DNA of 64,000 bases from Deltaproteobacteria bacterium (lineage in GTDB: Bacteria; Desulfobacterota; RBG-13-43-22), in NCBI GenBank assembly GCA_016219225.1, contig JACRBX010000097.1:1106-65105 (forward strand). Reading direction: 5' to 3'. The position numbers and the translations under genes were made by a program. The notes beneath the pieces were generated by a model. That model was not told where the DNA came from. It made no database searches and saw nothing but the letters and a program-made list of their open reading frames with translations. This document shows, one piece after another, positions 2,136 through 64,000 of the stretch; position 1 is the first letter of the stretch; each line of letters begins with the position of its first letter.

Positions 2136-2847
2136 ACCCATCCTTAGGATGGAGGGGATTCACACCTTCATTGGAAAACATCATGTCTTGCAGGGTGTCT
2201 CCCTGGAGATTTATCCGGGGAATATAACGGTGCTTTTGGGAAGAAACGGGGCCGGCAAGAGTACGACCCTGCGGACCATTATGGGGTTGGTTCCTCCCAC
2301 TCAAGGGACCATTCATTTTAAGAATCAACCGATTGATCATCTGAAGCCTTTTCAAGTCGCCCGGCTGGGAATAGGGTTTGTTCCCGAAGATCGCGGCCTT
2401 TTCGATCATCTGACGGTGGAAGAGAACTTCCGGGTGGCCATGCTTGGGGAAGATGAAACCTCCTGGCAGAGACTGGAGTCCATCCTGGAAATCTTCCCGG
2501 ATCTCAAAAAATTCTGGAGGGCCAAGGCCGGAGTTTTGAGCGGCGGACAAAAGCAAATGCTGGCTATTGCCCGCCCCCTGGTCAACCCCAATGCCCTGTT
2601 ATTGATCGATGAACCCTCCAAAGGATTAGCCCCGATCATCATCGAACACCTGATCGAAGCCATCCATAAACTTAAAGAAAAAGCGGTCATTATCCTGGTG
2701 GAACAGAATTTTTATATGGCCAGCCGCTTAGGGAATGCCTTCTGTCTGTTTGACGACGGGAAGACTGTCCTTAAAGGTCCCATGGAGGAAATCATCCGGG
2801 ATGAAGATCTGAAAAAGAAATATTTGGGGATTTCAAAGACTTCTTAG
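2128..2847 (+). CDS. ABC transporter ATP-binding protein (LivF-like)
   Basis: Walker A GRNGAGKST, signature LSGGQKQMLAIA and Walker B LLIDEPSKGL. I chose the GTG start at 2128 because it follows GGAGGAGG and overlaps the upstream stop (GTGCCTGA). ATG 2149 is an alternative start. Confidence 0.85.
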   Translation: MPEPILRMEGIHTFIGKHHVLQGVSLEIYPGNITVLLGRNGAGKSTTLRTIMGLVPPTQGTIHFKNQPIDHLKPFQVARLGIGFVPEDRGLFDHLTVEENFRVAMLGEDETSWQRLESILEIFPDLKKFWRAKAGVLSGGQKQMLAIARPLVNPNALLLIDEPSKGLAPIIIEHLIEAIHKLKEKAVIILVEQNFYMASRLGNAFCLFDDGKTVLKGPMEEIIRDEDLKKKYLGISKTS

Positions 2848-2861
2848 AAAGAGAGTATGGC

Positions 2862-3848
2862 ATGACCTCTGCTGGCAGACCATGGATTCCAAGGCTTATC
2901 GGGCCGGCCCTGATCCTTCTTCCCCTTTTGTTCATCCAACCCAAGACCTATCTGACTTTGACTATCTCCGGATTGGCCATGGGGATGCTCCTCTTCCTGG
3001 TGGCTTCGGGCTTCTCTTTGATCTTCGGTTTTATGGATGTCCTGAATTTTGCCCACGGGGCCTTTTTCGCCTGGGGGGCCTATGTAGGTTATACGGCCAT
3101 GCTCTGGATCAACAAATGGTCGGGGTGGGCCACTTCGGATTCCTTCTTCTTGAATATGATCATCTTTCTTCTGGCCTTGATGGCAGCCGGATTAAGCGTG
3201 GCTGTCCTGGGGATTATTATTGAGAGACTGGTGATTCGTCGCGTCTATGGAAACCATCTGTTTCAAATTTTTATCACCGTCGGGACCATGATCGTCCTGG
3301 AGGAATTGATTCGCATCACCTGGGGGCCGGACGATGAGGTCATGTCCGTACCCCAGAGCTTCATCGGATCCTGGGATCTTTTCGATGTGGTCATCTCAAA
3401 ATACCCCATGATCGCCATTGTCATCGGACTATTGATTTACGGGGCCATGCACCTGATCCTGAAAAAAACAAAACTAGGGATGATTGTCCGGGCCGGGGTG
3501 GAAAAACCGGAGATGGTTCAGGCTATGGGGCATAATATTTACCGGTATTTTACCGGCGTATTTGCTGCCGGATCGGCCCTGGCCGCCATTGGCGGCGGCA
3601 TGTGGGCCACTTTCGTCAAATCCATTCACCCGGCCATGGGGGGAGAAGTGATCATTTTCGCCCTGGTCATCGCCATCATTGGGGGCCTGGGCAGTATGAC
3701 CGGTTCGGTGGTCGGCGCTTTGATTGTCGGGCTTTCGTACAATTACGTAGCTTACCTGATCCCTAAAGGGTCTTTAGGCATTACCATGATCCTTTTAATC
3801 GTTGTTTTATTGATCAAGCCGACCGGGTTATTTTCGGAGGGAACCTGA
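2862..3848 (+). CDS. Branched-chain amino acid-type ABC permease (LivH-like)
   Basis: Polytopic hydrophobic protein whose motifs (FGFMDVLNFAHGAFF, GGLGSMTGSVVGA) are typical of the LivH family. Confidence 0.85.
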   Translation: MTSAGRPWIPRLIGPALILLPLLFIQPKTYLTLTISGLAMGMLLFLVASGFSLIFGFMDVLNFAHGAFFAWGAYVGYTAMLWINKWSGWATSDSFFLNMIIFLLALMAAGLSVAVLGIIIERLVIRRVYGNHLFQIFITVGTMIVLEELIRITWGPDDEVMSVPQSFIGSWDLFDVVISKYPMIAIVIGLLIYGAMHLILKKTKLGMIVRAGVEKPEMVQAMGHNIYRYFTGVFAAGSALAAIGGGMWATFVKSIHPAMGGEVIIFALVIAIIGGLGSMTGSVVGALIVGLSYNYVAYLIPKGSLGITMILLIVVLLIKPTGLFSEGT

Positions 3849-3849
3849 T

Positions 3850-4953
3850 TTGGAAAAAATCCATTTGACGCCTGTTCAGGAATACCGTTTGCGCGAAAGG
3901 GCCGAAAGGACCAGCGGGTCCGTCTTTTATCTTAAACTCTTTCTGTTGGCCTTTTTTTTGTCCGTACCTTTCCTGTTTCACTCTTTTGAGATACTGGATG
4001 TGATCCTCAAGATCATTGTCTTTTCGGCCCTGGTCGCCAGTTATGATATACTCATCGGATATACCGGAATCGCCTCGCTGGGCCATACTCTATACTTTGG
4101 AATCGGGGCCTATCTGGTAGGCATCTTCATGGGGAAGTTCGGTTTGAGTTCCTATGGCCATCTGGCTCTGGCCGTCTTGATCGGTGTAGTGTTATCAGGG
4201 GTTCTATCCGTATTTATCGGGTTTTTTTCCCTCCGTATACGGACTATTTTCTTTGCCATGGTTACCCTGGCCTTTTTGGAGTTTGTCTTTATCCTCTCCA
4301 GCCAGTTACGGTTCCTGACCGGCGGGGATGACGGCCTCAGCTTTAAGCTTCCCGGCATCCTGGCCATCGATTACAGCCTGGGCCGGTTTTTAGGCCTGGA
4401 GGTTACGGGCCGCATCATAAGCTATTACCTGATCCTCCTGGTTGCCCTGATCCTCTTTCTTTTGATGCTCCGTTTTGTCCATTCCCCCTTCGGCCGGGTA
4501 CTTAAGTCCATTCGGGACAATGAACAACGCTCCATTGCTTTAGGCTATAAGACCTACCTTTTTCATATCATGGCTTCTTCTTTTGCCAGTTGTGTCGCTT
4601 CGGTTGCGGGGGGGTGTTTTGCCATCTGGGTCGGGTTCGTCAGCCCCGAATCCACCCTGGGGGTCCCTATTATGCTGGATGTGCTCCTCATGGTCATTGT
4701 CGGGGGTATGGGGACACTCTATGGAGGAATTTTCGGAGCCTCCTTTTTAATGGTTATGCGGGCTTTTCTGCCAAAGGTCCAGGGACTCGTTGCGGCTCTG
4801 CTGCCCGGTGTTCCTTTAGCCGTCCGGTTATCGGAGCGCTGGCTTTTTTATTTCGGACTGCTTTTCATCCTGATCGTCTATTTCTTTCCCAAAGGATTAG
4901 TCGGGACGGCCCAGGAGTTCGTTCATAAAAAAAGGAACGAGGAAATTGGGTAG
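3850..4953 (+). CDS. Branched-chain amino acid-type ABC permease (LivM-like)
   Basis: Polytopic protein with LivM-like motifs (GYTGIASLGHTLYFGIGAY, VGGMGTLYGGIFGA). The TTG start lies 1 nt after the LivH-like stop. Confidence 0.8.
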   Translation: MEKIHLTPVQEYRLRERAERTSGSVFYLKLFLLAFFLSVPFLFHSFEILDVILKIIVFSALVASYDILIGYTGIASLGHTLYFGIGAYLVGIFMGKFGLSSYGHLALAVLIGVVLSGVLSVFIGFFSLRIRTIFFAMVTLAFLEFVFILSSQLRFLTGGDDGLSFKLPGILAIDYSLGRFLGLEVTGRIISYYLILLVALILFLLMLRFVHSPFGRVLKSIRDNEQRSIALGYKTYLFHIMASSFASCVASVAGGCFAIWVGFVSPESTLGVPIMLDVLLMVIVGGMGTLYGGIFGASFLMVMRAFLPKVQGLVAALLPGVPLAVRLSERWLFYFGLLFILIVYFFPKGLVGTAQEFVHKKRNEEIG

Positions 4954-6590: not shown

Positions 6591-8093
6591 TTATTCCTGA
6601 AAAGCCTCCTCCCTTTTTTTCCGTATAGCCGGAAAGATCACCAGGAAAAGCAGCAGGGCCGAAAGGGTAAGTAAAACGGCGCTTATGGGCCGGGTCAGGA
6701 AAACCATCGGATCGCCTCGCGAGATCAGCATGGCCCGCCGCAAATTTTCCTCCATAAGCGGACCCAAAATAAAGCCGAGTAAAAAGGGCGCCCCCTCGCA
6801 GCCGGTCTTGGCAAAGACATATCCGAGAAACCCGAAAATGACCATGATCACCACTTCAGCGGTGCTGTTGTTGAGGGTGTAGACCCCGATGCAGCAAAAA
6901 ACCAGGATGGCCGGGAAAAGATAGCGGTAAGGCACCTTGAGCAGGCTTACCCAAAGCCCGATCAAGGGGAGATTAATGACGACCAGCATCAGATTTCCGA
7001 TCCACATGCTGGCCACCATCCCCCAAAACAACTCCGGCCGTTCCTGCATAACACCGGGGCCGGGGGCTATGCCCTGGATGATCATGGCCCCCATCATCAA
7101 GGCCATGACCGCATTGGAGGGCAGGCCGAGGGTCAGCAGGGGGATAAAGGAGGTCTGGGAGGCCGCATTGTTGGCTGATTCCGGCCCGGCCACCCCTTCG
7201 ATGGCGCCCTGACCGAACCGGAAGGGCTTTTTGGATAAACGTTTCTCCAGGGTATAAGAGGCGAAGGAACTGAGCACGGCCCCTCCCCCCGGCAAGACCC
7301 CGAGGATGGAACCCAGAAAGGTCCCTCGAACCACCGGCGCCCAGGATTCCTTAAAGTCCTTCCTGGACGGCCAGAGGCCACGAATCTTGGATGATACAAC
7401 CCTGCGGTCCTGTCCTTTTTCCAGGTTCAAAATGATTTCAGCCAGGCCGAAGACCCCCATGGCAATAGGTACAAAGCCGAGACCGTCGGTCAATTCAGGA
7501 ATGCCGAAGGTATAACGGGATACGCCGCTATTCAGATCCATGCCGATCAAACCCAGAAACAAACCGAAAAGAATCATGGCCACGGCCTTGATGACCGACC
7601 CATGGGCCAACACAATGGCCGATATGAGTCCCAACACCATGAGAGAAAAATATTCTGGGGAGGAAAATTTCTGGGAAAAGCTGGCCAGGGCCGGGCCGAA
7701 GAGGGCGATCAATAGGGTCGCCACCGACCCGGCAAAAAACGACCCCAAAGCGGCAATGGCCAGGGCCGCACCGGCCCGCCCCTGTTGGGCCATTCGATGG
7801 CCGTCGATGCAGGTCACCACGGAAGAGGCCTCTCCGGGCAGGTTGACGAGAATGGAGGTGGTGGAGCCTCCGTACTGGGCACCATAGTAGATGCCGGCCA
7901 GCATGATCAGGGCCGAAAGGGGGGTCAAACCGAAGGTGATGGGCAGCAACATGGCAATGGTAGCCACCGGCCCGAGACCGGGGAGCACGCCGATTAAGGT
8001 GCCGATCAGGGCACCAACCAGACAGAACAGCAGATTGGCCGGGACCAGTACCGCAGAGAATCCAAGGAGAAGGGAGTCAAAGATTTGTGTCAT
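6591..8093 (-). CDS. tctA: Tripartite tricarboxylate transporter large permease TctA
   Basis: Strong TctA family resemblance (GVLPGLGP, YGAQYGGSTTSILVN, ESANNAA). The start was moved to ATG 8093, which overlaps the tctB stop (ATGA). The ORF-track extension 8094-8321 overlaps tctB. Confidence 0.9.
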   Translation of the reverse strand: MTQIFDSLLLGFSAVLVPANLLFCLVGALIGTLIGVLPGLGPVATIAMLLPITFGLTPLSALIMLAGIYYGAQYGGSTTSILVNLPGEASSVVTCIDGHRMAQQGRAGAALAIAALGSFFAGSVATLLIALFGPALASFSQKFSSPEYFSLMVLGLISAIVLAHGSVIKAVAMILFGLFLGLIGMDLNSGVSRYTFGIPELTDGLGFVPIAMGVFGLAEIILNLEKGQDRRVVSSKIRGLWPSRKDFKESWAPVVRGTFLGSILGVLPGGGAVLSSFASYTLEKRLSKKPFRFGQGAIEGVAGPESANNAASQTSFIPLLTLGLPSNAVMALMMGAMIIQGIAPGPGVMQERPELFWGMVASMWIGNLMLVVINLPLIGLWVSLLKVPYRYLFPAILVFCCIGVYTLNNSTAEVVIMVIFGFLGYVFAKTGCEGAPFLLGFILGPLMEENLRRAMLISRGDPMVFLTRPISAVLLTLSALLLFLVIFPAIRKKREEAFQE

Positions 8094-9820: not shown

Positions 9821-11074
9821 ATGAAAGAGCAAAGTTTTCTCAGCCCCTATCGCATCCTGGATTTGACCGATGAAAAGGGACTGATCTGCGGTAAGTTCCT
9901 CAGGGATCTCGGGGCCAAGGTGATCAAGATCGAAAAACCCGGTGGGGATCCGGCCCGGAATATCGGTCCCTTCTATCATGATATCCAGGATCCCGAAAAA
10001 AGTCTTTTCTGGTTTTCCTTGAACACCGGCAAGAAGGGGATCACCCTGGATATCACTCGACCCAAAGGAAAAGAAATTTTCCGGGAATTGGTCAAAGGTG
10101 CGGACTGTGTTCTGGAATCCTTTCCACCCGGCACACTGGATGGCCTGGAACTCGGCTACAAAGCGTTATGCCTGATAAAATCCGACCTGATCATGACTTC
10201 CATCACCCCTTTCGGAGATAAGGGACCTTACCGGGATTATAAAGGATCGGATCTTATCCTCTGGGCCTTATCGGGCCTGCTCTTTATCTGCGGGGATCCG
10301 GACCGGCCTCCGGTCAGGATAAGCCTGGAACAATCATACCTGCACGCCGGTGCCGACGGGGCCGCCGGCACGGTCATGGCCCTCTTCCATCGGGGTCGAT
10401 CGGGGAAAGGGCAGCAGGTTCAGGTATCGATTCTCAAGGCCATGGAACGTGTGGCCTATACGGCCCACATCCTCTGGGACGCCCGGGGCAAAATCCTGAG
10501 AAGGCCCGGAAGCGCCTTGAGAATTCCCCCTCTTGGTACGAAGACCCCTCTCATCTGGTCCTGTAAGGACGGCTATGTGGCCTTCTATTTATTCGGAGGC
10601 GCCATGGGTGCCGTGAGTAATCCGGCCCTCACTCAATGGTTGGATGAAGAAGGTCTGGCCAGTGAAGTCATGAAGGCCATGGATTGGCCTAAATTTGATA
10701 TTGGAACAACCCTTCAAGAAGACATTGACCGTCACATTGTCGGACCGATCGCCGAATTTTTCAAAGGCCGCACCAAGAAAGAACTTTGGGAAGGCGGCAT
10801 AAAAAGACGGGTCATGGTCTATCCGGTTAATGATGCCCATGGGGTGCTGAACGACCAGCAGCTCAAGGAAAGAAATTTTTGGGCCAGGGTCGCACATACC
10901 CATCTTGAGGATACCCTGGATTATCCCGGGCCTTTTATCAAAGTGGAAGGGGAACTTTGCCAGGTCAGGGGACGGGCCCCTTTGATCGGGGAACACAACG
11001 AGGAAATCTATGTAAATGAACTCGGGCTATCGGGAGAAGATCTGGTGCGGTTAAAGGCGGAGGGGGTTATTTAG
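9821..11074 (+). CDS. Family III CoA-transferase (CaiB/BaiF family)
   Basis: The N-terminus YRILDLTDEKGLICGKFLRDLGAKVIKIEKPGGDPAR is typical of the family, and the length is about 417 aa. Confidence 0.85.
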   Translation: MKEQSFLSPYRILDLTDEKGLICGKFLRDLGAKVIKIEKPGGDPARNIGPFYHDIQDPEKSLFWFSLNTGKKGITLDITRPKGKEIFRELVKGADCVLESFPPGTLDGLELGYKALCLIKSDLIMTSITPFGDKGPYRDYKGSDLILWALSGLLFICGDPDRPPVRISLEQSYLHAGADGAAGTVMALFHRGRSGKGQQVQVSILKAMERVAYTAHILWDARGKILRRPGSALRIPPLGTKTPLIWSCKDGYVAFYLFGGAMGAVSNPALTQWLDEEGLASEVMKAMDWPKFDIGTTLQEDIDRHIVGPIAEFFKGRTKKELWEGGIKRRVMVYPVNDAHGVLNDQQLKERNFWARVAHTHLEDTLDYPGPFIKVEGELCQVRGRAPLIGEHNEEIYVNELGLSGEDLVRLKAEGVI

Positions 11075-11272
11075 ATTTTGGATTTTAGATTTCGGATTTC
11101 GGATTTAAAAGAAACAGCATTCCCATGATCCGTGGTGCTCCCCCCGGACATAAGGGTTTAGTACGAAAATAGATTTTTAACCACTTTGGCCTCTGTTGGG
11201 GCTTCGTAGGGGCGGTATTTTCATGCTTAAGGGGTTTTTCCTTTGAGCTTTGAGCTTTCAGCTTTCAGCTAT
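11074..11272 (-). repeat. Two tandem heptamer-array elements filling the intercistronic gap
   Basis: (GATTTYG)x4 at 11074-11106 and (CTTTGAG/CTTTCAG)x4 at 11241-11270. Reverse-complement cores sit at about 11125-11150 and 11213-11236. A reverse-complement tail motif (TCTATTTTCGTACTAAACC) is also present. Confidence 0.7.
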
Positions 11273-11280
11273 TTTATAGG

Positions 11281-12546: not shown

Positions 12547-12685
12547 GGGGACACCACGAAGCATAAAAATATTTTTTAGGGGCGATGGGCGATGGGCAAG
12601 GTTAAACGGGTTTATGGGTTATTATTCGCCTATGGCCTATAGCCTCGTGCCTATAGCCTGAATTTTTCTATTTTCGAACTAAATC
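12547..12685 (+). repeat. Heptamer-array element (core, two partly complementary arrays, tail)
   Basis: Core GGGGACACCACGAAGCATAAAAAT at 12547-12570. Arrays (GGCGATG)x2+GGCAAGG at 12581-12601 and (GCCTATR/GCCTCGT)x4 at 12628-12660. Tail CTATTTTCGAACTAAATC at 12668-12685, just before the RBS of the next gene. Confidence 0.8.
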
Positions 12686-17871: not shown

Positions 17872-18014
17872 GTTACTGGTTTCTCGTTACTCGTTTTAAT
17901 ACAAAAATAAGTTCGGGGTTTAGAGTTCGGAGCAAACCATTTTCATGATTCGAGGTGTTCCGGCGGAGCATGAGAGTTTAACCAGCAACCAGTAACCAGT
18001 AACCAGTAACGAGC
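17872..18014 (-). repeat. Nested composite heptamer-array element
   Basis: Outer inverted arrays of GTTACTG-type heptamers: 17872-17895 versus (AACCAGT)n at 17980-18014. The inner array GTTCGGG GTTTAGA GTTCGGA sits at 17911-17931. The reverse-complement core (..ATTTTCATGATTCGAGGTG..) sits at 17937-17966. Confidence 0.75.
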
Positions 18015-22470: not shown

Positions 22471-22573
22471 GGCATTTCCTTTCGTTTAAACTTGATTCTT
22501 TTGGGCCACCGAACTACACGGGCCAATATAGACATTTTGAGTCCGGCCAATAATGATGCTCACGAAAAAACCC

Positions 22574-22688
22574 GTCATTCCGACTCCGTCCCGTTGGGGA
22601 CTACGTCCCGGAGGGCGCAGGCGGGAATCCAGGCCCTATGTAACTAATTAATCCCGCCAAAAGCGGGACCCGTTTTCACGGGAATGAC
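22574..22688 (-). repeat. GTCATTCC...GGAATCC(AGG) hairpin-repeat family, two adjacent copies
   Basis: GTCATTCCGACTCCGTCCCGTTGGGGAC...GCGGGAATCCAGGCC at 22574-22635 is related to the reverse complement of 47921-48016. A second unit CCCGCCAAAAGCGGG ACCCGTTTTCACGGGAATGAC sits at 22650-22688. Confidence 0.75.
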
Positions 22689-22694
22689 GATAAT

Positions 22695-22737
22695 GGGCGC
22701 TTCTCTTGAACTTTGAGCTTTGAGCTTTCAGCTATTT
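22695..22737 (+). repeat. Heptamer array (CTTGAAC TTTGAGC TTTGAGC TTTCAGC TATTTT)
   Basis: Nearly identical to the array at 11241-11275, including the trailing CAGCTATTTT. Confidence 0.7.
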
Positions 22738-22739
22738 TC

Positions 22740-28419: not shown

Positions 28420-28446
28420 CCAACCCGGACCAGCCGGAACCAAAAT
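28420..28446 (+). repeat. 27-nt motif CCCAACCCGGACCAGCCGGAACCAAAA (copy 1 of 3)
   Basis: The same string occurs at 63976-64000, and with small changes at 50309-50343. TGGTCCGGG at 28480-28488 can pair with CCCGGACCA. Confidence 0.7.
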
Positions 28447-28595
28447 TGGTTATCTCAAACATCGGGAAGATTTTCATTTGGTCCGGGTAGAGGGCCTGTT
28501 TTTTATAAATTCTTTCCAAGTTGCGTAGATTTTTATTCTTAAGTCACTAAAAGGAAAGAAGCAGAAAATGCGGAAAATTTCTTTCTTCTTGAATC

Positions 28596-42095: not shown

Positions 42096-43610
42096 ATGGA
42101 TGTAATTAACCAACTCCTTCTGGGTTTTTCGGTAGCCTTTCAGCCGGTCAACCTGTTTTATTGTTTTTTGGGCTGCTTGATCGGGACACTGGTCGGGGTG
42201 CTGCCCGGTCTGGGGCCTACGGCGGCCATGTCCCTGTTGCTTCCCACCACCTTTCACGTGCCTCCGGTTTCGGCCATCATCATGTTGGCCGGGATCTATT
42301 ACGGGGCCATGTACGGCGGGTCCACTACCTCCATCCTGGTCAATATTCCAGGTGAGGCCGCTTCCGTCATGACCTCCCTGGACGGCTATGCCATGGCCCG
42401 CCAGGGGAGAGCCGGCCCGGCCCTGGGAATATCCGCTTTTGGTTCCTTTATAGCAGGCACCATTGGACTGGTTGGATTATCCTTTCTGTCTCCTCCCCTG
42501 GTCTCTTTCGCCCTCAAATTCGGACCTCCTGAATATTTTTCCCTCATGTGCCTGGGCATGGTGGTCCTCACCTTCCTGACCTCCGCTTCCATGATTCAAT
42601 CTCTAATGATGGCCTGTTTGGGGATCATTATCGGGACAGTAGGCACTGATACGGTATCGGGGTCCACCCGTTTTACCTTCGGGATAATGGAGTTGATGGA
42701 TGGTGTGGGTTTGGTCCCTTTGGTAATGGGCCTCTTTGGTATCTCCGAAATACTTCTCAATCTCGAACAGAAGATCAATCGGGATATTTTTATGACCCGG
42801 GTCAAAGGTCTGCTTCCGACGGCCCAGGATTGGCTCCAGGCCAAATGGGCCATCCTCCGGGGAACAGTGATCGGGTTTCTGCTCGGTATCCTGCCCGGCG
42901 GCGGAGCGGTCCTGGCCTCCTTTGTGGCCTATGCCATAGAAAAAAAGGCTTCCAGGACACCGGAAAAATTCGGCTCCGGTATGATTGAAGGGGTGGCCTC
43001 TCCCGAATCGGCCAATAATGCAGCGGCCCAGGCGGCCTTTATCCCCCTTTTGACCCTTGGACTTCCATCCAATGTCGTCATGGCCGTACTTTTGGGGGCA
43101 TTGATCATCCACGGCGTAACGCCGGGACCTCTTCTTTTAAGTCAACACCCCGATGTTTTCTGGGGGGTGGTGGCCAGCATGTATCTGGGCAATATGATGC
43201 TTCTGGTCTTGAACCTCCCTCTTATCGGGATCTGGGTTCAACTCCTCAAGATCCCCTATCCTTTGATGATGCCCATGATTATTATTTTCTGCCTCATCGG
43301 GGCCTATTCCATCGCCGGCAGTACTACCGATATCTATATCATGCTTTTCTTCGGGGTCATCGGCTATTTGATGAAAAAACTCCGCTATGAGGCCCCTCCC
43401 CTGGTCCTGGCCTTTGTTTTGGGGCCCATGCTGGAGTATTACCTGAAATCATCGCTCATGTTGTCCCACGGAAGTTTCCGGATCTTTTTTATCCGCCCTA
43501 TTTCAGCCGTTTGCCTGATCATTACCTTATTGCTTTTATTTCTTCCTGTTCTGAAGACCTTTCGAGGGAAACGGGTAGCCGTTGCTGAAAAAGCCGAAGA
43601 TCTCTCTTAA
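42096..43610 (+). CDS. tctA: TctA large permease, second system
   Basis: Same motifs as the first TctA (GVLPGLGP, YGAMYGGSTTSILVN, ESANNAA). Confidence 0.9.
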   Translation: MDVINQLLLGFSVAFQPVNLFYCFLGCLIGTLVGVLPGLGPTAAMSLLLPTTFHVPPVSAIIMLAGIYYGAMYGGSTTSILVNIPGEAASVMTSLDGYAMARQGRAGPALGISAFGSFIAGTIGLVGLSFLSPPLVSFALKFGPPEYFSLMCLGMVVLTFLTSASMIQSLMMACLGIIIGTVGTDTVSGSTRFTFGIMELMDGVGLVPLVMGLFGISEILLNLEQKINRDIFMTRVKGLLPTAQDWLQAKWAILRGTVIGFLLGILPGGGAVLASFVAYAIEKKASRTPEKFGSGMIEGVASPESANNAAAQAAFIPLLTLGLPSNVVMAVLLGALIIHGVTPGPLLLSQHPDVFWGVVASMYLGNMMLLVLNLPLIGIWVQLLKIPYPLMMPMIIIFCLIGAYSIAGSTTDIYIMLFFGVIGYLMKKLRYEAPPLVLAFVLGPMLEYYLKSSLMLSHGSFRIFFIRPISAVCLIITLLLLFLPVLKTFRGKRVAVAEKAEDLS

Positions 43611-46506: not shown

Positions 46507-46582
46507 GGAAGGCCACGAAGCCTGAAAATGGTTTATTCCGAACTCCGAACTCTAAACTCCGAACTTTATTTTCATGTTAATC
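46507..46582 (+). repeat. Heptamer-array element (core, array, tail)
   Basis: Core GGAAGGCCACGAAGCCTGAAAAT at 46507-46529. Array TCCGAAC TCCGAAC TCTAAAC TCCGAAC at 46537-46564. Tail TTTATTTTCATGTTAATC at 46565-46582, directly before the RBS of the next gene. Confidence 0.85.
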
Positions 46583-47906: not shown

Positions 47907-48016
47907 AATTAGTTAGACATGGCCTGGATTCCCGCCTCCGCCCTTCCCTCCGGCCTGTAAGCCCTACGGGCTGGAAGCGGGGACGGTGTCCCCAACGGGA
48001 CGGAGTCAGGAATGAC
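47907..48016 (+). repeat. GTCATTCC/GGAATCC hairpin-repeat family, long member
   Basis: AATTAGTTAGACATGGCCTGGATTCCCGCC...GGACGGAGTCAGGAATGAC. It is the reverse-complement relative of 22574-22650 and shares its head with 54681-54724. Confidence 0.75.
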
Positions 48017-48057
48017 GAATCTTTACAGTGTCACCAATCGTAGCAGGAGAAAAAGAT

Positions 48058-49964
48058 ATGGCCACTGAAACAGAAAACAGGCCGGAAGAAATGGAAAAAA
48101 AAGTCGGTGTCTATATCTGCCATTGCGGCGGCAATATTTCAGACCATGTGGATGTCCGGCAGTTGGCGGAAAATGCCGGACATCTTTCCGGGGTGGCAAC
48201 GGCCCGGACCAACATGTTCATGTGTTCCGATGCCGGCCAGGAACTGATCCAGGAAGACATAAAAAAGGGTCTGGTCAACCGTATCGTGGTGGCCTCCTCG
48301 CCCCCAGTCTGCATGAAACGACCTTTCGGGGGGCCATCAAACGGGCCGCTATGAACCCCTATCTGTATGAACATGCCAATATACGGGAGCAGGTCAGTTG
48401 GGTCCATCATGGAAAGCAGGCCACCGACAAAGCCACCCGGCTGGTGGCGGCGGCCGTGGCCAAGACGAAAAAGATGGAACCCCTGGACCCGATTCGGGTT
48501 GAAGCCAAAAACCATGCGGTCGTTATCGGAGGCGGGGTGGCCGGATTGCGGGCGGCTGTCGATCTTTCCCGGCGAGGCGTCGAAGTGGCCCTGATAGAAA
48601 AATCCCCCTTTTTGGGTGGCCGGGCGGCCGGCCTGGACAAACTGGTGCCCAGCGGAGAGTCGGCCCCTGAACTGATTCGCCAATTAGTCGGGGAAGTCCT
48701 GGCTGAAAAAAATATTACGATTTATTCCTGTTCCGAGATCGTCAAGGCCGACGGGTATGTGGGAAACTTTAAGCTCACCTTTCAGAGAAGACCTCCCGAA
48801 TTGAATGGGGATCCAACAAAGCAGGCCTTCCCGGATTACAAAAATGCCGCCGTGGGTGCTTTTATCCCCTTTGCCGGATACTTCCCGCAACCCATCCCGG
48901 AAATAACCGAAGAATTCACCCTCCATACCGGGGCCGTCATCCTGGCCACGGGATTTAAATCCTATGACCCCTTACCAGGGGAATATGGTTTCCAGGAACA
49001 CCCGGAAGTCATCACCCTGCCGGAGCTTATCCGGCATATGGCCCGAACCGGCTCTCAAGGGTCTCAACTGGAATTGAACGGCAAAAGGATCGAACGGCTG
49101 GCTATGATTCACTGCGTAGGCAGCCGGCAGATACCGGGTATTCATGAACCCGGTCCGGAAGGCATCCTGAACGAATATTGTTCCAGAACCTGCTGCAGCG
49201 CCACCCTCCAGGCCGCCAGCGTCATCAGGGAAAAATACCCGAAAACAAGGGTCTTTGAATACTACCGGGATATCCGCACCTACGGTCGGGGACAGGAAGA
49301 ATACTATGAACGGGCCTCGAAAAATCAGGTACTCTTTTTGCGTTTCGAGCCGGATGCCCCTCCGGTGATCGAGGCGGCTGCCGGCTCAGGACACCCTTTA
49401 AAGGTGACGGTAAAAGATACCCTGACCTTCGGAGAGGAAATTGAAGCCGAGGTGGATCTGGTGGTCCTGTCCGTAGGCATGGAGCCGAATGATATCTCGG
49501 AACTGGTGGAAATGATGAAACTGCCGGTAGGTTCCGATCGCTTTCTGCTGGAAGTCCATCCCAAGCTCCGTCCGGTGGAAGTGGCCAAGACCGGTGTCTT
49601 ATTGGCCGGGACTTGCCAGGCCCCCATGGATATCAGTGAGGCCTGCAATGCGGCCCAGGCGGCTTCGGTCAAGGCCTCGGCTTTGTTGACCAGGGGGTAT
49701 GTAGAGTTGGATCCTTATGTAGCCCAGGTCGACCTGAGCCGCTGCACCGGCAATGGCCTTTGCGCCGCCGTCTGCCCTACGGAAGGGGCCTTACAAATGA
49801 TGGACAGGGTTGTTGACGGGCAAAAGGTCCGGCGGGCCCGGGTCAACCCGGCCCTTTGCACCGGATGCGGTATCTGCGTGGCCGTCTGTCCTGATAAGGC
49901 CATCGATATCAACGGCTGGAAGCTGGAGCAGTATGAAGCCATGGTGGAAGCCATAGCAGGATAG
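48058..49964 (+). pseudogene. hdrA: HdrA-type oxidoreductase (long form with a C-terminal ferredoxin domain) interrupted by a 1-nt frameshift in a C5 run
   Basis: The N-terminal part is in the frame of ORF 48028 ([18 protein letters not shown]...[10 protein letters not shown]). The rest is in the frame of ORF 48123 (SLHETTFRG...[12 protein letters not shown]...CVGSRQ...YCSRTCC...two CxxCxxCxxxCP motifs). The frames join if CCCCC at 48301-48305 becomes C6. Confidence 0.8.
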
Positions 49965-49965
49965 A

Positions 49966-49993
49966 GTTCGGATTTCGGAATGCGGATTTCGGA
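49966..49993 (+). repeat. Heptamer array (GTTCGGA TTTCGGA ATGCGGA TTTCGGA)
   Basis: Read directly. It lies immediately after the hdrA stop. Confidence 0.7.
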
Positions 49994-50037
49994 ATTAAAA
50001 CGAGTCATGAGGAATAATTCCAAATAGAAGGAAAACC

Positions 50038-50319
50038 ATGAAAGAGATGACCGGCCAGGAGGCCTTAAAAAAGCTTAGAGACGAACGCCAAGTCTGGATA
50101 GAGCAGGCCAAGAGCCTGATAAAAGAACAGAGTTCGATCATAAAAAAAATCAAGGAGCACCTCCAGGGTGATGGCAAAACCGTGCCGGAAATCGCCCGGG
50201 CCACTGGAATCAAAAGCTCAGAGGTCCTTTGGTTTGTTATGGCCCTGAAGAAATACGGCCAGGTGCTCGAGGGTCCGAAAGATGGCGACTATTATAAATA
50301 TGAACTCACCAACCCCTAA
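50038..50319 (+). CDS. Small winged-helix-like protein
   Basis: 93-aa ORF with an RBS-like AGGAA upstream. The central TVPEIARATGIKSSEVLWFVMALKKYGQV segment looks like an HTH/wHTH. Confidence 0.55.
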   Translation: MKEMTGQEALKKLRDERQVWIEQAKSLIKEQSSIIKKIKEHLQGDGKTVPEIARATGIKSSEVLWFVMALKKYGQVLEGPKDGDYYKYELTNP

Positions 50320-50343
50320 CCCGGACAAGCCGGAACCAAAAAA
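50309..50343 (+). repeat. 27-nt motif, variant copy (CCAACCCCTAACCCGGACAAGCCGGAACCAAAAA)
   Basis: Related to 28420-28446 and 63976-64000. It overlaps the stop codon of the wHTH gene. Confidence 0.6.
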
Positions 50344-50408
50344 TTCGTAACAATTTAGCCCTTTGAAAAACTTGAAACTTTTGTTTGAAAATCCCGACTT
50401 TCGCACAC

Positions 50409-50433
50409 GTCATTCCGGTGAAAACCGGAATCC
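50409..50433 (+). repeat. Hairpin repeat GTCATTCCGGTGAAAACCGGAATCC (downstream flank of the intron)
   Basis: It is the exact reverse complement of 52409-52433 and belongs to the GTCATTCC/GGAATCC family. Confidence 0.85.
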
Positions 50434-50461
50434 AGGTGTTATGCTGCGACGAAAAGAACCT

Positions 50462-52408
50462 ATAGGGGTAGGAACGGTGCATTGGTTTGCACCGCCCCTC
50501 CCTCCGAACCGGACTGGCGGATCTCCCGCATCCGGCTCTCCAGTCGGTGGTTATCCTCATGAGGACTGAAGCAAGGCGCGATGGGCATTATAAAGGCTAA
50601 AATACCCAAGGTCCTGAAAGTATTTGTTTGGCCATCGTATGTTGTCCTTGCCCCGGCTAATCCCTTTGCCTTTGCTGTAGCCCCGCAGGATACTTCTGAG
50701 CCTGCGTCTTATCCAGCCGTCCAGTGGCTTGAAGGTCGTCCAATGGCTGTGCTTGAAGTATTCAAACCATCCTACGCTCGTTTTGTTGACCTCATCGATG
50801 ATCTCCGCAATACTGCGGCCATTGCTGCGTTTGGTCTTACGGCGAATGGTGTCTTTGAATTTCTTCATGCTCTTCTTGCGCGGCCAGCGGGTGCCCTTCT
50901 CAAAGTGATAGCCGAGAAAGTCGAAGCTCTGGCCGGCTTGTTGTGTGTTAACCAAACTGGTTTTGTCCGCGTGCAGGGTCAGACCCCGAGCTTGGACCAG
51001 TTCGTTCACCCGCGTCAATGCCGCTTGAGCTTCTGGCTGGCTCTTGCACAGGATGACGAAATCGTCCGCATAGCGAACCATCTCGTATCCCTCCGTCTTC
51101 ATGACCTTGTCCACCTCGTGCAGATAAATGTTGGACAGCAGCGGGCTGATCACCGCCCCTTGTGGCGAGCCCGTTTCCGGCGTCCACAGTTTCAGGTCTT
51201 GCAAAATCTGCTGTTTGAGAAAGCTTTCGATCAATTCCAGTACGCGGCTGTCAGCGATGCGCTGTTGCACCTCTTTCATCAGGCGTTCATGCCCGATGGT
51301 TTCAAAGTAGCTCTTAAGGTCGGCGTCCACTACCCACGTGTTGCCTGCCCTGAGCAATCGCTCGACGCTTCGAAGGGCATCCTTGCACCCTATGCCGGGC
51401 CGGAAGCCAAAGCTGGTGTCCATGAACTCATGCTCGAAGATCGGTTCGATGACCATCTTGAGCGCTGTCTGCACCACTTTGTCCCGCACCGTCGGTATTC
51501 CCAGCGGCCGCTTGTCCTTGCTGCCGGGCTTGTCGATGTAGGTGCGACGTATCGGCCTGGGCCGATATGTACCGGTGCGCAGTTCCTCTTCAAGTTTTGC
51601 CAGGTTCTTCGTCAGTTGCTCCTCAAACTGTTCCAGACTTTGTTGGTCCGATCCTACCGCGCGACCTTTGCCTCTGACCTGTTGCCATGCCTCCAGAAGG
51701 ACTTGGGGCCGGTGTACCTTGTCATTCAGGCTGAACCAAACGCCTCCTTTCACCCCCTTTTCCAGGGCCTCCAGCATACGATCCGTCCATACCGTACGTT
51801 GTACCCAGCTCCATTGACCGGAACGGATTTCTCCTGCTTGCTTAGTCCTTGCGGGCACTGTCGCAGGTTTGTTTTCGCACGCTATGTCCTTCACCTATCC
51901 ACCTTCCTGCGTCCCTTGACTCCACGGGCATTACCCCGCTTCCTTGCTAATATGGACGCTCTGACTCCTGCCCGTACGGCTCTCCGTCTACTTGTTGAGC
52001 AGACTCGATTCCAACCTTTACACAGGCAGGTCTCCCTGGTTCACATGGCGCGACCTTCAATGCATTCCGTCACCAAACACCTGACGCGTCCCGTCATCGC
52101 TTTTGTGCTGCCCGCCCAGCGTGATGGGCTTCCAGGACCATTTCGCTTCCGTGGGACTCGCAGTCGTTCACGGGGTTTATACCAACCTGGGGTAAGCTTT
52201 CGCTCCTGGTCTGGACTTCGCCTCGAATCCGCAGGCTCGTCACTACGTACGGCCGAATCGTGTTCGCACTATTACTACGGACTGCATGTTCGCCTTGGGT
52301 TGCTCCCCACCCCACCTCGCGGTGACGCAGTTACCTTTGGCTACCGGGCTCGGGCATCTCCCGGAGGAGGACTTTCACCTCCCAAATCACGCCTGCTTCC
52401 AGGCGCAC
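50462..52408 (-). mobile_element. Group II intron (about 1.95 kb) encoding an RT/maturase without an endonuclease domain
   Basis: The minus-strand 5' end reads GUGCGCC, starting at 52408. Domain V is GAGCCGGAUGCGGGAGAUCCGCCAGUCCGGUUC (50506-50538). A domain VI helix with a bulged A follows, and the 3' end ...CCCCUAU sits at 50462. The RT ORF lies in the domain IV position. Confidence 0.85.
50557..51894 (-). CDS. Group II intron reverse transcriptase/maturase
   Basis: RT motifs (RPLGIPTVRDKVVQTALKMVIEP, the YADDFVIL catalytic box) and a maturase X-domain-like C-terminus. No HNH/En domain is present. Confidence 0.93.
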   Translation of the reverse strand: MKDIACENKPATVPARTKQAGEIRSGQWSWVQRTVWTDRMLEALEKGVKGGVWFSLNDKVHRPQVLLEAWQQVRGKGRAVGSDQQSLEQFEEQLTKNLAKLEEELRTGTYRPRPIRRTYIDKPGSKDKRPLGIPTVRDKVVQTALKMVIEPIFEHEFMDTSFGFRPGIGCKDALRSVERLLRAGNTWVVDADLKSYFETIGHERLMKEVQQRIADSRVLELIESFLKQQILQDLKLWTPETGSPQGAVISPLLSNIYLHEVDKVMKTEGYEMVRYADDFVILCKSQPEAQAALTRVNELVQARGLTLHADKTSLVNTQQAGQSFDFLGYHFEKGTRWPRKKSMKKFKDTIRRKTKRSNGRSIAEIIDEVNKTSVGWFEYFKHSHWTTFKPLDGWIRRRLRSILRGYSKGKGISRGKDNIRWPNKYFQDLGYFSLYNAHRALLQSS

Positions 52409-52433
52409 GGATTCCGGTTTTCACCGGAATGAC
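52409..52433 (-). repeat. Hairpin repeat GTCATTCCGGTGAAAACCGGAATCC (5' exon side of the intron, minus strand)
   Basis: Exact inverted copy of 50409-50433. The intron starts immediately after ...GGAATCC. Confidence 0.85.
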
Positions 52434-52530
52434 GGAGAGGTTGTCGACGTTTTTTGAAAAAGCTAAACTGATACAAAAAATTCTATCCATTTTGCGTAGA
52501 AATTTATTCCTAAGTTACTAAGGGAGAACG

Positions 52531-53733
52531 ATGATGGCTGACCGGATTGATCCTGATTTGATGACCCAATTAAAAAAGTTCGGCCTGTCCGATGCCACGG
52601 AATGCTTCAATTGCGGCAATTGCACGGCCGTCTGCGCTTTGTCTTCGGAATCCACCCCCTTCCCCAGGAAGGTCATCCGCTATTTGCAGTTGGGCTTAAA
52701 ATCCAAACTGGCCGGGAGCGTGGAACCCTGGCTCTGTTATTACTGCGGCGACTGTTCCAAAACCTGTCCGCGGCAGGCCAATCCGGGGGAAGTCATGATG
52801 GGGCTCCGCCGATTTCTGACTGCATCTTATGACTGGACCGGCATTTCGCGCCTTTTCTATACCTCAAAAATATTTGAAGTCCTGTCGCTTTTGGTGGTAG
52901 CCGCCCTGGTGGGCCTGGGCTTTTATTTCTTTCACGGTCCCATGCTGACCGATCGTGTGGCCTTAAATGTCTTTGCCCCCAACACGACCATTGAGATCCT
53001 GGACCTGATTATGCTGGGCGTCCTGTCTTTTTTCCTCTTGAGCAATGCTTACCGGATGTCAAAAGCCGTTATGGCCGACGGGCCGGCAGCCGGACCGGAG
53101 TCTCGGCCCAAAGGGATATTCGGGATCCCTTTGTTAGTTTATGCCAGGGAGGCCAAGGAATTCATCCTTCAGTTTACGACCCAGAAGAGATTTAACGCTT
53201 GCGGGACCCCCTCGCAAAGGACCCAGTGGCTGGTCCATCTACTGATCATGACCGGATACTCCACCGTCTTTCTGCTGGTGGTGGTGGGCATCCGTTGGTT
53301 TCAACGGGATGAAATCTATCCTTTATGGCACCCCATCCGGTTGCTGGGCTATTATTCCACCTTTGCCATCCTCTACGGTGTCACTTACGCCCTGGTCGGC
53401 AGGATCAGGAAAAGCAAAACCGTTTACCAGCATTCCCATTCATCGGACTGGGTCTTTTTAATCATGCTTTGGCTGACCGCTTTCAGCGGCATCTTGATTC
53501 ACTTTGCCCAGTTGCTGGTTATGCCTCTGACCACCTACTTTATCTATGTCATTCACCTGATGATCGCTGTCCCTATGCTGGTCATTGAAGTCCCTTTTGC
53601 CAAGTGGACCCACCAGCTTTACAGGCCCCTGGTCCTTTATCTGACGAAAGTCAAGGAAAGGGCTCTGCAGGAGGAAACTGAATCCGAAACCATAATAGCC
53701 GTTCCCAAAGCCAATCTGGCGGAAATGGGCTAA
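52531..53733 (+). CDS. QmoC/HmeC-like membrane redox subunit: HdrC-like 2x[4Fe-4S] domain fused to a six-TM cytochrome-b-like (HdrE/NarI-type) domain
   Basis: CFNCGNCTAVC and CYYCGDCSKTCP motifs sit at the N-terminus. Six hydrophobic helices follow, with conserved-looking His residues (HLLIMTGY, ILIHFAQ, VIHLMIA, KWTHQLY). Confidence 0.72.
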   Translation: MMADRIDPDLMTQLKKFGLSDATECFNCGNCTAVCALSSESTPFPRKVIRYLQLGLKSKLAGSVEPWLCYYCGDCSKTCPRQANPGEVMMGLRRFLTASYDWTGISRLFYTSKIFEVLSLLVVAALVGLGFYFFHGPMLTDRVALNVFAPNTTIEILDLIMLGVLSFFLLSNAYRMSKAVMADGPAAGPESRPKGIFGIPLLVYAREAKEFILQFTTQKRFNACGTPSQRTQWLVHLLIMTGYSTVFLLVVVGIRWFQRDEIYPLWHPIRLLGYYSTFAILYGVTYALVGRIRKSKTVYQHSHSSDWVFLIMLWLTAFSGILIHFAQLLVMPLTTYFIYVIHLMIAVPMLVIEVPFAKWTHQLYRPLVLYLTKVKERALQEETESETIIAVPKANLAEMG

Positions 53734-54148: not shown

Positions 54149-54315
54149 GGGGCGCCACGAGGCATGAAAATGCTTCACAAGGCGATAGGCAATGGGCCAG
54201 GGGCTATAGGTTAAATGATCTTAAGATTTTTCCTTCACCCATAGCCTATAGCCTATTGCCCATCGCCATTTTGAGTTTTTTCGCACTTGAAACTTGCATC
54301 TTGCATCTTGAACCC
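54149..54315 (+). repeat. Heptamer-array element with a long imperfect hairpin and a second array
   Basis: Core GGGGCGCCACGAGGCATGAAAAT at 54149-54171. The arm GGCGATA GGCAATG GGCCAGG GGCTATA GG (54181-54211) pairs with CATAGCC TATAGCC TATTGCC CATCGCC (54237-54267). A further array ACTTGAA ACTTGCA TCTTGCA TCTTGAA sits at 54284-54311. Confidence 0.85.
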
Positions 54316-54538
54316 TTTTTTTCTTATTAAAATACCGTCTCCCCAATAGAAATATACAGGCAATACCTTATTTTTCATTTACGGAAATGAAGATAGTATC
54401 TATGAAGGTAATATTAAAAAAAAATAAAGGTTGTTGCGTTCGTAAAAAGCTATGAAACGCCGCATTGCGGGGCTGTATCAGAAAATAACTTGGCAATAAA
54501 AAAGCTAAGTTATTTGGAAGTCTAAAAGCGCCGATTAC

Positions 54539-54724
54539 GTCATTCCCGTGAAAACGGGAATCCAGTGTTTTAAATTAGGACGCTGATTTTCGCCGATACC
54601 CGCAGATAACTACTCTATATATTCAAAATCTTGGCAATCTGCGTCGATCTGCGTCCAAAAAGGAAATTCCTATACCCTTAAATTAGTTACATATAGCCTG
54701 GATTCCCGCCTTCGCGGGAATGAC
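54539..54724. repeat. Cluster of hairpin repeats (GTCATTCCCGTGAAAACGGGAATCCAG; a GGACGC..ATCTGCGTCC dyad; AATTAGTTACATATAGCCTGGATTCCCGCCTTCGCGGGAATGAC)
   Basis: Units at 54539-54565, about 54579-54656, and 54681-54724 were read directly. They are members of the same families seen at 22574-22688, 47907-48016 and 50409/52409. Confidence 0.75.
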
Positions 54725-54791
54725 GAGTTATTACGAGACCATCAAGGTTTGGATTACCAAGGGTCGACGTGGGTTGAAAGGAGTGGTTTGC

Positions 54792-56138: not shown

Positions 56139-56167
56139 AGTTAGTGACAATGAACTCGTGAAAAATC

Positions 56168-56199
56168 GTCATTCCCTCGCAGGTTTTCGCGAGAATGAC
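56168..56199. repeat. Intercistronic palindromic hairpin GTCATTCCCTCGCaggttttcGCGAGAATGAC
   Basis: Read directly. It is a GTCATTC...GAATGAC family variant lying between the TolC and MFP genes. Confidence 0.7.
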
Positions 56200-63975: not shown

Positions 63976-64000
63976 CCCAACCCGGACCAGCCGGAACCAA
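63976..64000 (+). repeat. 27-nt motif CCCAACCCGGACCAGCCGGAACCAA (copy 3, cut by the window end)
   Basis: Identical to 28420-28444. The upstream GGTTATTCA also resembles GGTATTCA before copy 1. Confidence 0.7.

Follow-up and report, generated by a model that had tools for sequence, protein, structure and literature searches.

The 64,000-nucleotide (nt) stretch of Deltaproteobacteria bacterium DNA examined here (assembly GCA_016219225.1, contig JACRBX010000097.1; below, the window) carries a complete group II intron on its minus strand, nested within a small repeat-bearing element in a qmo operon. The intron is most probably an endonuclease (En)-less retroelement that selects its targets in the mode of class C (IIC) introns, directly after a DNA hairpin, and that combines this mode with a ribozyme bearing class E/F traits and a reverse transcriptase (RT) outside class C, its sub-lineage being tuned to a dispersed repeat that resembles dRS3 and the repetitive extragenic palindromes (REPs).

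In minus-strand sequence, the intron begins with GTGCG at 52408 and ends with ...CCUACCCCUAU at 50462 (Table 1), the same termini as in a preliminary description of the window. The Rfam model for domains V and VI (RF00029) matches 50540-50462 over its full length with 52.2 bits (gathering threshold 40) and ends on the last intron base, bearing out the expectation that the 3′ boundary would fold into these domains. Joining the exons gives the repeat consensus GGAATCC+AGG, as had been read from the flanks. All general features of group II membership are present, namely domains V and VI with a bulged branch-point A, a 5′ GUGYG, an RT in domain IV, covarying pairing of exon-binding site 1 (EBS1) with intron-binding site 1 (IBS1), and the α-α′ pairing. 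No other intron fragments were found within the 64-kb window.

RVT_1 and GIIM are the only domains that a domain search found in the open reading frame (ORF) of domain IV, in keeping with the earlier observation that an En domain is lacking. The protein passes TIGR04416, the NCBI equivalog model for group II RT/maturases, with 384 bits against a cut-off of 300. Gene callers and all homologues agree on ATG 51777 as the start, from which the non-ORF RNA amounts to about 726 nt; the figure of about 600 nt given previously is matched if the longest ORF is used (about 609 nt) and is too low for the start supported by homologues. A 98%-identical copy of the intron is found in another assembly (L001), at an unrelated locus upstream of lysA. 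The two RT ORFs differ at 23 nucleotides, 16 of them at third codon positions, and the proteins at 6 of 406 residues, which points to purifying selection on the RT and to recent movement of the element. Judged by its sequence, this group II intron appears to be an intact retroelement that lacks an endonuclease, has been mobile in recent times and is apparently active.

Recognition of the insertion site

Related loci were collected by exact-protein look-ups, a scan of species-representative genomes and a metagenome scan, and both splice sites were mapped by profile searches, with the 3′ boundaries of the metagenome set anchored on the CYTAT end. The sample comprises 129 distinct insertion sites, 127 of which could be scored for EBS1.

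The EBS1 that the preliminary description had put forward as a candidate is supported by covariation. It pairs with exon positions -1 to -5 in 127, 124, 126, 120, and 110 of the 127 sites, respectively, and with position -6 in 55/127, the window included. On the first 61 unique combinations, none of 2000 shuffles reached the observed values at positions -1 to -6, and position -7 was at chance. An unbiased scan of all domain I columns against exon positions -14 to +3 returned the five EBS1 pairs as its five strongest signals. EBS3 gave no signal in the scan of a 300-nt alignment and was found on a longer subfamily alignment. Its pairing with IBS3 is observed in 25/25 close relatives and in 55/55 sequences of the genome set, and is Watson-Crick in 96 of 98 cases combined (32 U:A, 61 G:C, 3 A:U). 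The column scan of domain I against exon positions -14 to +3 contained no second diagonal that would correspond to an EBS2, and upstream of IBS1 the complementarity of true intron-exon pairs did not exceed that of mismatched ones (8.18 against 8.35 for the mean longest run).

Taken from these sequence patterns, recognition appears to combine the upstream hairpin with EBS1 (5-6 base pairs, bp) and EBS3 (1 bp), which is an IIC-style mode. At dRS3-type sites the hairpin has an 8-bp stem and a 2-nt tail, and IBS1 takes in three bases of the 3′ arm, belonging to the conserved GGAAT clamp. That IBS1 covers the clamp would explain why each sub-lineage stays with this repeat family and does not use any hairpin available. 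The same overlap implies either opening of the lower stem or recognition of no more than the upper ~5 bp in helical form.

Table 1. Coordinates of the intron, its target and the surrounding insert in the window
Feature	Position	Strand	Details
Complete group II intron	50462..52408	minus	1,947 nt, 5′ GUGCG ... CCCCUAU 3′; boundaries homologous in about 130 relatives
Domain I	52034..52408 (approx. nt 1-375)	minus	RNAalifold consensus, 20 relatives; boundaries approximate
α	52351..52356 (intron nt 53-58)	minus	UGCCCG; terminal loop of nt 45-65 hairpin
EBS1	52225..52230 (intron nt 179-184)	minus	GGAUUC; loop of conserved hairpin GCCUGC-EBS1-..AGGC
α′	52109..52114 (intron nt 295-300)	minus	CGGGCA; terminal loop of nt 281-320 stem-loop
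EBS3	52077 (intron nt 332)	minus	U; motif CAGGUG[N]UUGGUGAC; pairs with IBS3, A at 50461
Domains II and III	51909..52033 (approx. nt 376-443 and approx. nt 450-500)	minus	RNAalifold; approximate
RT/maturase, intron-encoded, in domain IV	50557..51777	minus	406 residues; ATG 51777, stop 50557-50559; YADD
Domain V	50506..50538	minus	33 nt, GAGCCGGAUGCGG-GAGAU-CCGCCAGUCCGGUUC; AGC triad, 5-nt loop
Domain VI and 3′ tail	50463..50505	minus	Rfam alignment structure line
5′ exon target hairpin	52409..52433	minus	GTCATTCCGGTGAAAACCGGAATCC; 8-bp stem, GAAA loop, 2-nt tail; DNA fold dG -8.2
IBS1	52414-52409	minus	GAAUCC; overlaps 3′ arm of target-hairpin stem
3′ exon	50409..50461	minus	28-nt spacer 50434-50461, then inverted partner hairpin 50409-50433
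Predicted ligated-exon junction		minus	...ACCGGAAUCC^AGGUUCUUUU, GGAAUCC^AGGUUC; read from sequence
Further repeat copies	22573-22690, 47907-48017, 54538-54566, 54697-54725		variant at 56167-56199
Whole insert relative to empty site	50320..52521	.	2,202 nt; 4-nt direct repeat CTAA at 50316-50319 / 52518-52521
Carrier element	50320-50461 + 52409-52517	.	~251 nt; holds hairpin doublet, intron nested within
Upstream gene	50038..50319	plus	93 residues; conserved between qmoB and qmoC in relatives; helix-turn-helix matches sub-threshold only
Downstream gene, qmoC-like	52531..53733	plus	400 residues; intact; ribosome-binding site GGGAG directly after insert

Ribozyme domains and class assignment

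The consensus fold was calculated with RNAalifold from a 20-sequence subfamily, as that of all 56 relatives was poor and gappy. Domain I contains a lineage-variable insertion at about nt 200-270, visible in the alignment; a boundary near nt 297 was ruled out, since EBS3 lies at nt 332. The α-α′ pairing is present in 25/25 sequences at five positions, with compensatory C-G to U-A changes. Domain V is 33 nt long in nearly all relatives, with an AGC triad in 60/60 and a GAGAU or GAAAU loop throughout the intron family. Its distal stem-loop is 13 nt (GCGG-GAGAU-CCGC), 1 nt shorter than the Rfam consensus. A bulged A at 50469, 8 nt from the intron 3′ end, is the branch-point candidate on account of the bulge. 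The sequence CGAACACGAUUCGG is conserved at intron nt 143-156 and may resemble the ε′ region of O.i.I1. The conserved AGGAA of the class C ε′ 11-nt bulge was not located in the alignment, to which no reference intron had been aligned.

The ribozymes of class C are characterized by a CGC triad, a domain V distal stem shortened by 2 bp, a 3-4-bp EBS1, an AGGAA ε′ bulge, and the lack of an EBS2 (Toor et al. 2006, PMC1702495). A cryo-EM structure of a IIC ribonucleoprotein on a DNA stem-loop displays the EBS1 and EBS3 pairings and lagging-strand priming (PMC10190682). Idiosyncrasies of classes IIE and IIF are a 5-nt domain V loop and an α′ at the tip of the DId3 stem-loop (Nagy et al. 2013, PMC3753933).

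The preliminary description assigned the intron to class C, and an ordinary class C intron, whose domain V and domain I differences would be variation within the class, is the alternative that survives best, although it is improbable. As in B.h.I1, O.i.I1, E.r.I1, and GsI-IIC, the intron-encoded protein (IEP, about 406 residues) is En-less, and insertion occurs a few nt after a stem-loop, usually in intergenic DNA (PMC1702495; PMC10190682; PMC4424553). EBS1 alone reads the 5′ exon, EBS3 and IBS3 pair as in class IIB, EBS2 is absent, and EBS1 at nt 179-184 is close to that of the E.r. IIC intron (nt 184-188). However, neither defining feature of a class C domain V is found: the triad is AGC, not CGC, and the distal stem is unshortened with a 5-nt loop rather than 2 bp shorter. 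This loop and the position of α′ in a terminal loop are E/F idiosyncrasies. Furthermore, domain I is about 375 nt long, EBS1 and EBS3 are separated by 150 nt (about 90 nt in relatives without the variable insertion) as opposed to about 45 nt in the solved IIC structure, and the EBS1-IBS1 pairing spans 5-6 bp and overlaps the stem instead of spanning 3-4 bp. None of the Rfam D1-D4 models matches at threshold. The intron does follow a stem-loop, as the preliminary description held. The description overlooked that the hairpin has no T-run, and so is not an intrinsic terminator; the targets of the family are REP/dRS3-like palindromes.

Solved RT structures rank IIC enzymes first by total score. 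This order was discarded as a sign of class C, since a comparison of distances showed that it reflects alignable length and not closeness. The E.r. and GsI class C RTs are 46% identical to each other, and the window RT shares 35% with each of them; within fingers and palm, it is as distant from class C (39.5-39.7%) as from LtrA of class ML (39.8%), whereas the class C pair share 51.5%. The class C sequences were taken from printed alignments of PDB searches.

A different precedent is provided by the IIC-attC introns (e.g., S.ma.I2), likewise a sub-lineage specialized on structured multicopy palindromes and typically lying against neighboring transcription. However, these have class C ribozymes and IEPs and target attC bottom strands in integrons, in place of the dRS3/REP-like repeat.

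Named class E/F introns (Cl.be.I2, Pe.th.I2, Ge.ur.I1; types g2-g5) share with the window intron the En-less IEP, the AGC triad, the 5-nt domain V loop, and α′ at the tip of DId3 (PMC3753933; PMC3552965; PMC4244168), as well as a small ribozyme of 450-700 nt. Their hosts overlap (Geobacter, Acidobacteria, Brocadiaceae, and Deltaproteobacteria): relatives of the window intron occur in Geobacteraceae, Acidobacteriota, Brocadiaceae, and many Desulfobacterota, which are hosts of named class F/g5 introns.

The IEP types g6, U1, and U2, which are outside class C and near it on IEP trees, are reported to lie directly after Rho-independent terminators (Miura et al. 2022, PMC8919778), and the RNA structure of g6 is C-like (PMC4244168). 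Insertion right after terminators means that the lineage might be one of these types. Its targets are repeats, however, not terminators, and U1 and U2 (Miura et al. 2022; Toro & Nisa-Martinez 2014) reportedly have an incomplete RT domain, while the window RT is full-length. None of the genomes in the tables of Miura et al. match the surveyed loci (PMC8919778).

Measured against published descriptions, the ribozyme is best called E/F-like, short of a class assignment. Class C membership is unsupported, and the intron seems IIC-like in its behavior.

Insertion sites in relatives and the repeat family

RT relatives number in the thousands and are mostly found on ~2-kb contigs, as expected for a multicopy element. 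The lineage is hosted by Desulfobacterota, Acidobacteriota, Planctomycetota, Nitrospirota, and other phyla. One family member (L072, JBBIPM010000134.1) comes from a metagenome-assembled genome labelled 'Candidatus Woesearchaeota archaeon'; its 2-kb contig is intron-only in length, which makes mis-binning likely.

The preliminary description had suggested a search for further copies and their targets. Nearly all of the 129 distinct sites proved to lie after a stem-loop. At 69/69 distinct genome sites a hairpin ends 0-12 nt (mode 2) before the splice site, and the mean DNA folding energy is -9.7 kcal/mol, versus -5.0 kcal/mol for control 45-mers. The metagenome sites likewise follow hairpins, with one apparent ectopic exception (L120): its 5′ exon, ...CTGCGCAAGCAGATCTTCC^ (here and below, the caret marks the splice or insertion site), has a weak 4-bp hairpin with a 7-nt tail and pairs with EBS1 at 3/6 positions, and looks off-target.

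Under a deliberately strict pattern, 28 sites have the GTCAynCC-hairpin-..TCC^ arrangement of the window. At another eight, insertion is earlier by a single base (..GGAATC^CAG) and the introns have EBS1 GAUUC(A) with EBS3 G; a further 18 use the other strand of the repeat (CTGGATTCC-hairpin-GGAATGA^CG), where EBS1 is UCAUUC and EBS3 is again G. Sites outside the strict patterns follow other GC-rich palindromes, including some REP-like families. The target stems differ even between near-identical introns, as in the window (GGTGAAAACC) and L001 (GGCGAAAGCC), and identical introns of an Isosphaeraceae genome follow members of a REP-like GATCGCCGGRCGGAGCCGGCTCCTA^CAA family with GCCGG and GGGGG stems.

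These sites bear on a second alternative, less probable than class C membership, in which the intron retrohomes in a plain sequence-specific manner to a multicopy GGAATCC^AGG and the hairpin is incidental. Part of IBS1 does fall inside the conserved ATTCC/GGAAT clamp, no sub-lineage uses more than one sequence edge of the repeat, and the 6-7 bp of pairing needed are fully covered by EBS1 and EBS3. Yet sites of 6-7 bp would number thousands per genome, and insertions are found after hairpins. Distant relatives with an entirely different IBS1 still follow a hairpin at all genome sites, and identical introns in a single genome follow different stem sequences. Hairpin-directed insertion remains the preferred reading of the survey.

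Some loci carry unusual arrangements. In L063, two copies in the same orientation (1468-3313 and from 4892) are found within 3.5 kb, each after its own GTCATTCC...GGAATC hairpin with a different stem. L035 (3318-3390) has a short tandem duplication that spans its 3′ splice site: the last ~45 nt of the intron, a domain VI fragment ending in CCTCTAT, recur in the 3′ exon, and the exon start AGTGTTTTTGCCCAA comes again after them. L008 (about 2418-4316) and L009 represent one element whose 5′ end is truncated by some 55-63 nt, as incomplete reverse transcription or a later deletion could produce. Its 3′ exon keeps a dRS3-like partner hairpin (CCTGGATTCCGGCTAAGGGCATGCCGGAATGACGG).

The dispersed repeat unit is CGTCATTCC-(variable stem-loop)-GGAATCCAGG. 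The pattern GTCATTCC-N(4-30)-GGAAT occurs four times in the window, where 0.18 occurrences are expected, and further copies are present (Table 1), which upholds the proposal of a dispersed family. Compensatory stem changes distinguish the copies (e.g., GGT...ACC versus CGT...ACG). The intron was described as sitting at the edge of this repeat. It does directly follow the hairpin, but the insertion point GGAATCC^AGG is inside the conserved unit and not at its outer edge. The exact inverted hairpin copy reported 28 nt past the 3′ splice site is confirmed: the 5′ exon hairpin and its partner form an inverted repeat that is perfect over 26 nt and has no counterpart in 100 shuffles. Together, the hairpins at 52409-52433 and 50409-50433 make up a REPIN/NIME-like doublet. 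A partner hairpin start (GGAnnCC motif) is located within 45 nt downstream in 15/21 sites of the window's sub-lineage.

Two of the copies, 22573-22690 and 47907-48017, are long variants in which the clamp CGTCATTCC...GGGAATCCAGG surrounds a 45-75-nt GC-rich insert (GACTCCGTCCCGTTGGGGAC...). They have a common tail, CCyATrTCTAACTAATT, and are inverted relative to each other, 25 kb apart.

The 20-bp inverted repeat dRS3 has the consensus ATTCCC-N8-GGGAAT, and pairs of it flank 50-150-bp RS spacers in arrays (PMC1797815). This consensus (ATTCCCNNNNNNNNGGGAAT) is matched exactly at 54541-54560 and 54703-54722, and the intron-bearing copy differs from it in reading ATTCCG-N8-CGGAAT. As for dRS3/NIME and REP/REPIN, the window repeat forms intergenic inverted pairs, with 28-nt and 132-nt spacers, and is polymorphic between strains. 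Unlike NIME, it forms no long arrays in the window. The hosts are Desulfobacterota and other phyla rather than Neisseria, and the likeness to dRS3 is one of consensus sequence, any homology being putative.

The nested insert and the qmo operon

The intron lies antisense to an operon of order tusA-flpD-qmoA-qmoB-(93 residues)-qmoC-dsrE. The product of the downstream gene carries the JGI name QmoC and is 98% identical to P0121; it scores 187 bits with NF038018, below the cut-off of 300. Homologues of this protein led to an intron-less locus of the kind that the preliminary description had proposed to look for. In L090 (QmoC 98% identical, DNA about 96%), the empty site reads ...CCCCTAA^GGGAGAACGATG, the stop of the 93-residue gene directly adjoining the ribosome-binding site of qmoC, and 12 nt separate the two genes. 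In 89%-identical relatives this spacer is 27-37 nt and the order is σ54 activator(-)/tusA-flpD-qmoA-qmoB-(93 residues)-qmoC-dsrE-OEP; these genes are present in the window as well.

That the intron splits an operon is well founded, as 12 nt between the two genes would originally have been too few for a promoter of its own for qmoC. Being antisense, the intron cannot be spliced from the operon mRNA. Both points had been made in the preliminary description, and the empty site bears out the first. Its figure of about 2 kb between the upstream gene and qmoC captured the split, and missed that the insert totals 2,202 nt with the intron nested inside a ~251-nt carrier element. qmoC and dsrE are intact, and their expression must now rely either on transcription through 2.2 kb or on a promoter that the insert supplies. 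Scans for promoters and terminators around the insert gave nothing above shuffle level, including a promoter-like -35/-10 pair at 52454-52481. Outward promoters appear among the works listed for IIC-attC introns in one review (reference list in PMC4424553); here, the scans around the insert lend no support to an outward promoter, or to a terminator function of the hairpin.

The carrier has the form CCCGGAC.../...GTTACTAA, with the left end CCCGGACmAGCCGGAACCAAAA (50320-50341) and the right end ATTCTwTCCAwgTTGCGTAGAwwTTTATTCyTAAGTyACTAA (52478-52521). Both ends recur at 28424-28550 (~127 nt) around a different core without hairpins, which suggests that the nesting may be three levels deep, and the left end is also matched at the window edge (63981-64000). 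In both the carrier and the 28424-28550 element, the right end sits immediately before the ribosome-binding site of a gene. The carrier could be a family similar to miniature inverted-repeat transposable elements (MITEs), or a mobile promoter/5′-UTR (untranslated region) module.

That the hairpin or the whole carrier travels with the intron, making their association no matter of target choice, is very improbable: carrier and intron are both absent from the empty site and could have arrived together, and many sites have a hairpin on both sides of the intron, but stems, loops, and spacers differ among sites of near-identical introns, hairpins or doublets are unoccupied at 54538-54725, 22573-22690, and 47907-48017, the carrier-type element at 28424-28550 has neither hairpin nor intron, and EBS1 and EBS3 change in step with the flanks, as they should if the intron reverse-spliced into DNA that was already there.

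The spacer between dsrE and OEP is 152 nt in L090 (2045-2198) and 586 nt in the window (54176-54270, 54403-54760), where the extra DNA includes the hairpin pair 54538-54565/54698-54725. This difference suggests that small repeat elements are polymorphic between close relatives, on a short timescale.

Other repeats in the window are intergenic 7-nt tandem runs (GTTCGGA/TTTCGGA/TTTAGAG type) at 41-79, 11058-11110, 17903-17961, 46541-46572, and 49948-50000, which occur on both strands and often beside gene ends, the last directly after qmoB. Two short tandem families are found at 11228-11275 and 22691-22738 (GAGCTTT), and at 12599-12658 and 54208-54267 (CCTATAGCC). A 275-nt inverted repeat (6928-7202 and 42984-43258) is 72% complementary with arms 36 kb apart, and probably reflects paralogous genes in opposite orientation.

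The order of events suggested by the empty site is that the carrier, with its hairpin doublet, first inserted between the 93-residue gene and qmoC with duplication of CTAA, and that the intron would then have reverse-spliced into one hairpin of the doublet, its sub-lineage being tuned through EBS1 GGAUUC and EBS3 U to the GGAATCC^A edge. By analogy to the IIC paradigm, the excised intron-RT particle probably targets DNA that is briefly single-stranded and whose palindrome has folded out as a hairpin; reverse splicing would take place there, with EBS1 and EBS3 presumably setting the exact phosphodiester. The RT, having no endonuclease, would prime from the nascent strand at a replication fork, as for other En-less introns (PMC4424553; PMC10190682). 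Because the repeat occurs in inverted pairs, either orientation is available at a locus; use of the minus-strand hairpin here resulted in the antisense, non-spliceable arrangement.

Several points weigh against an E/F-like intron targeted in the IIC manner. In the solved IIC complex, IBS1 is single-stranded and follows a spacer (PMC10190682), whereas here about 3 nt of IBS1 belong to the 3′ arm of the stem, and the geometry of hairpin recognition may differ from that of the solved complex. Class E/F introns are described as IIB-like, with covarying EBS2-IBS2 and site-specific homing, in contrast to a family that lacks EBS2 and follows hairpins. The comparison with classes E/F, g6, U1, and U2 draws on published descriptions, not reference sequences, and that of the RTs on pairwise identities, not a tree, to two class C enzymes, both from Firmicutes. 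The best of the Rfam D1-D4 models, RF02003, reaches 35 bits, below its 49-bit threshold; no published mapping of these models onto intron classes was found. Most relatives come from metagenome-assembled genomes or metagenome contigs. Scans against shuffles yielded no convincing promoter for the intron or for qmoC. The proposed splicing, recognition of the hairpin, and priming at replication forks are inferences.

Group II introns that follow stem-loops 'or other inverted repeats' have been published before, and REPs are known landing pads. Both repeat types are known to receive mobile DNA: REPs are used by insertion sequence elements and dRS3 by a phage recombinase (PMC1797815; PMC1525189). 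In Pseudomonas putida the association is loose, with 2/9 group II introns REP-associated (PMC1525189). In reviews, bacterial group II introns are credited with three kinds of target (homing sites, terminators, and attC), with structure-based targeting in class C alone (PMC4424553); for IIB-type introns, according to a paper from 2021, secondary structure upstream has no reported role (PMC7923331). What appears to be new is a lineage that does not pass the tests for IIC and bears E/F ribozyme hallmarks, and whose IIC-style targeting is documented by covariation; its specialization on a dRS3/REP-like palindrome, with sister lineages retuned to the other strand and to a site shifted by 1 nt; and a clean pair of nested insertion and empty site in a qmo operon.

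It is tempting to speculate further that the relatives form an uncharacterized, phylum-spanning clade with IIE/IIF-type ribozymes, non-C RTs, and EBS2-less hairpin targeting, which radiated by retuning EBS1 and EBS3 across the edges and strands of REP/dRS3-type palindromes. This proposal is tentative, with the odds leaning somewhat against it. If true, hairpin targeting would either have evolved repeatedly or have come down to several En-less lineages from an ancestor, and REP-like repeats would be a major safe-haven niche for retroelements outside Firmicutes.

The 129-site covariation set allows target specificity to be read directly from EBS1 and EBS3, and makes two questions testable: how retroelements came to recognize DNA shape, and whether this ability can be uncoupled from the IIC ribozyme and RT. 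The locus itself is a natural case of nested mobile DNA in a dissimilatory-sulfur (qmo) operon, in a non-spliceable orientation, for which a 96%-identical relative provides the empty site. In anaerobic sulfur-cycling bacteria, REP/dRS3-like palindromes act as landing pads for retroelements.

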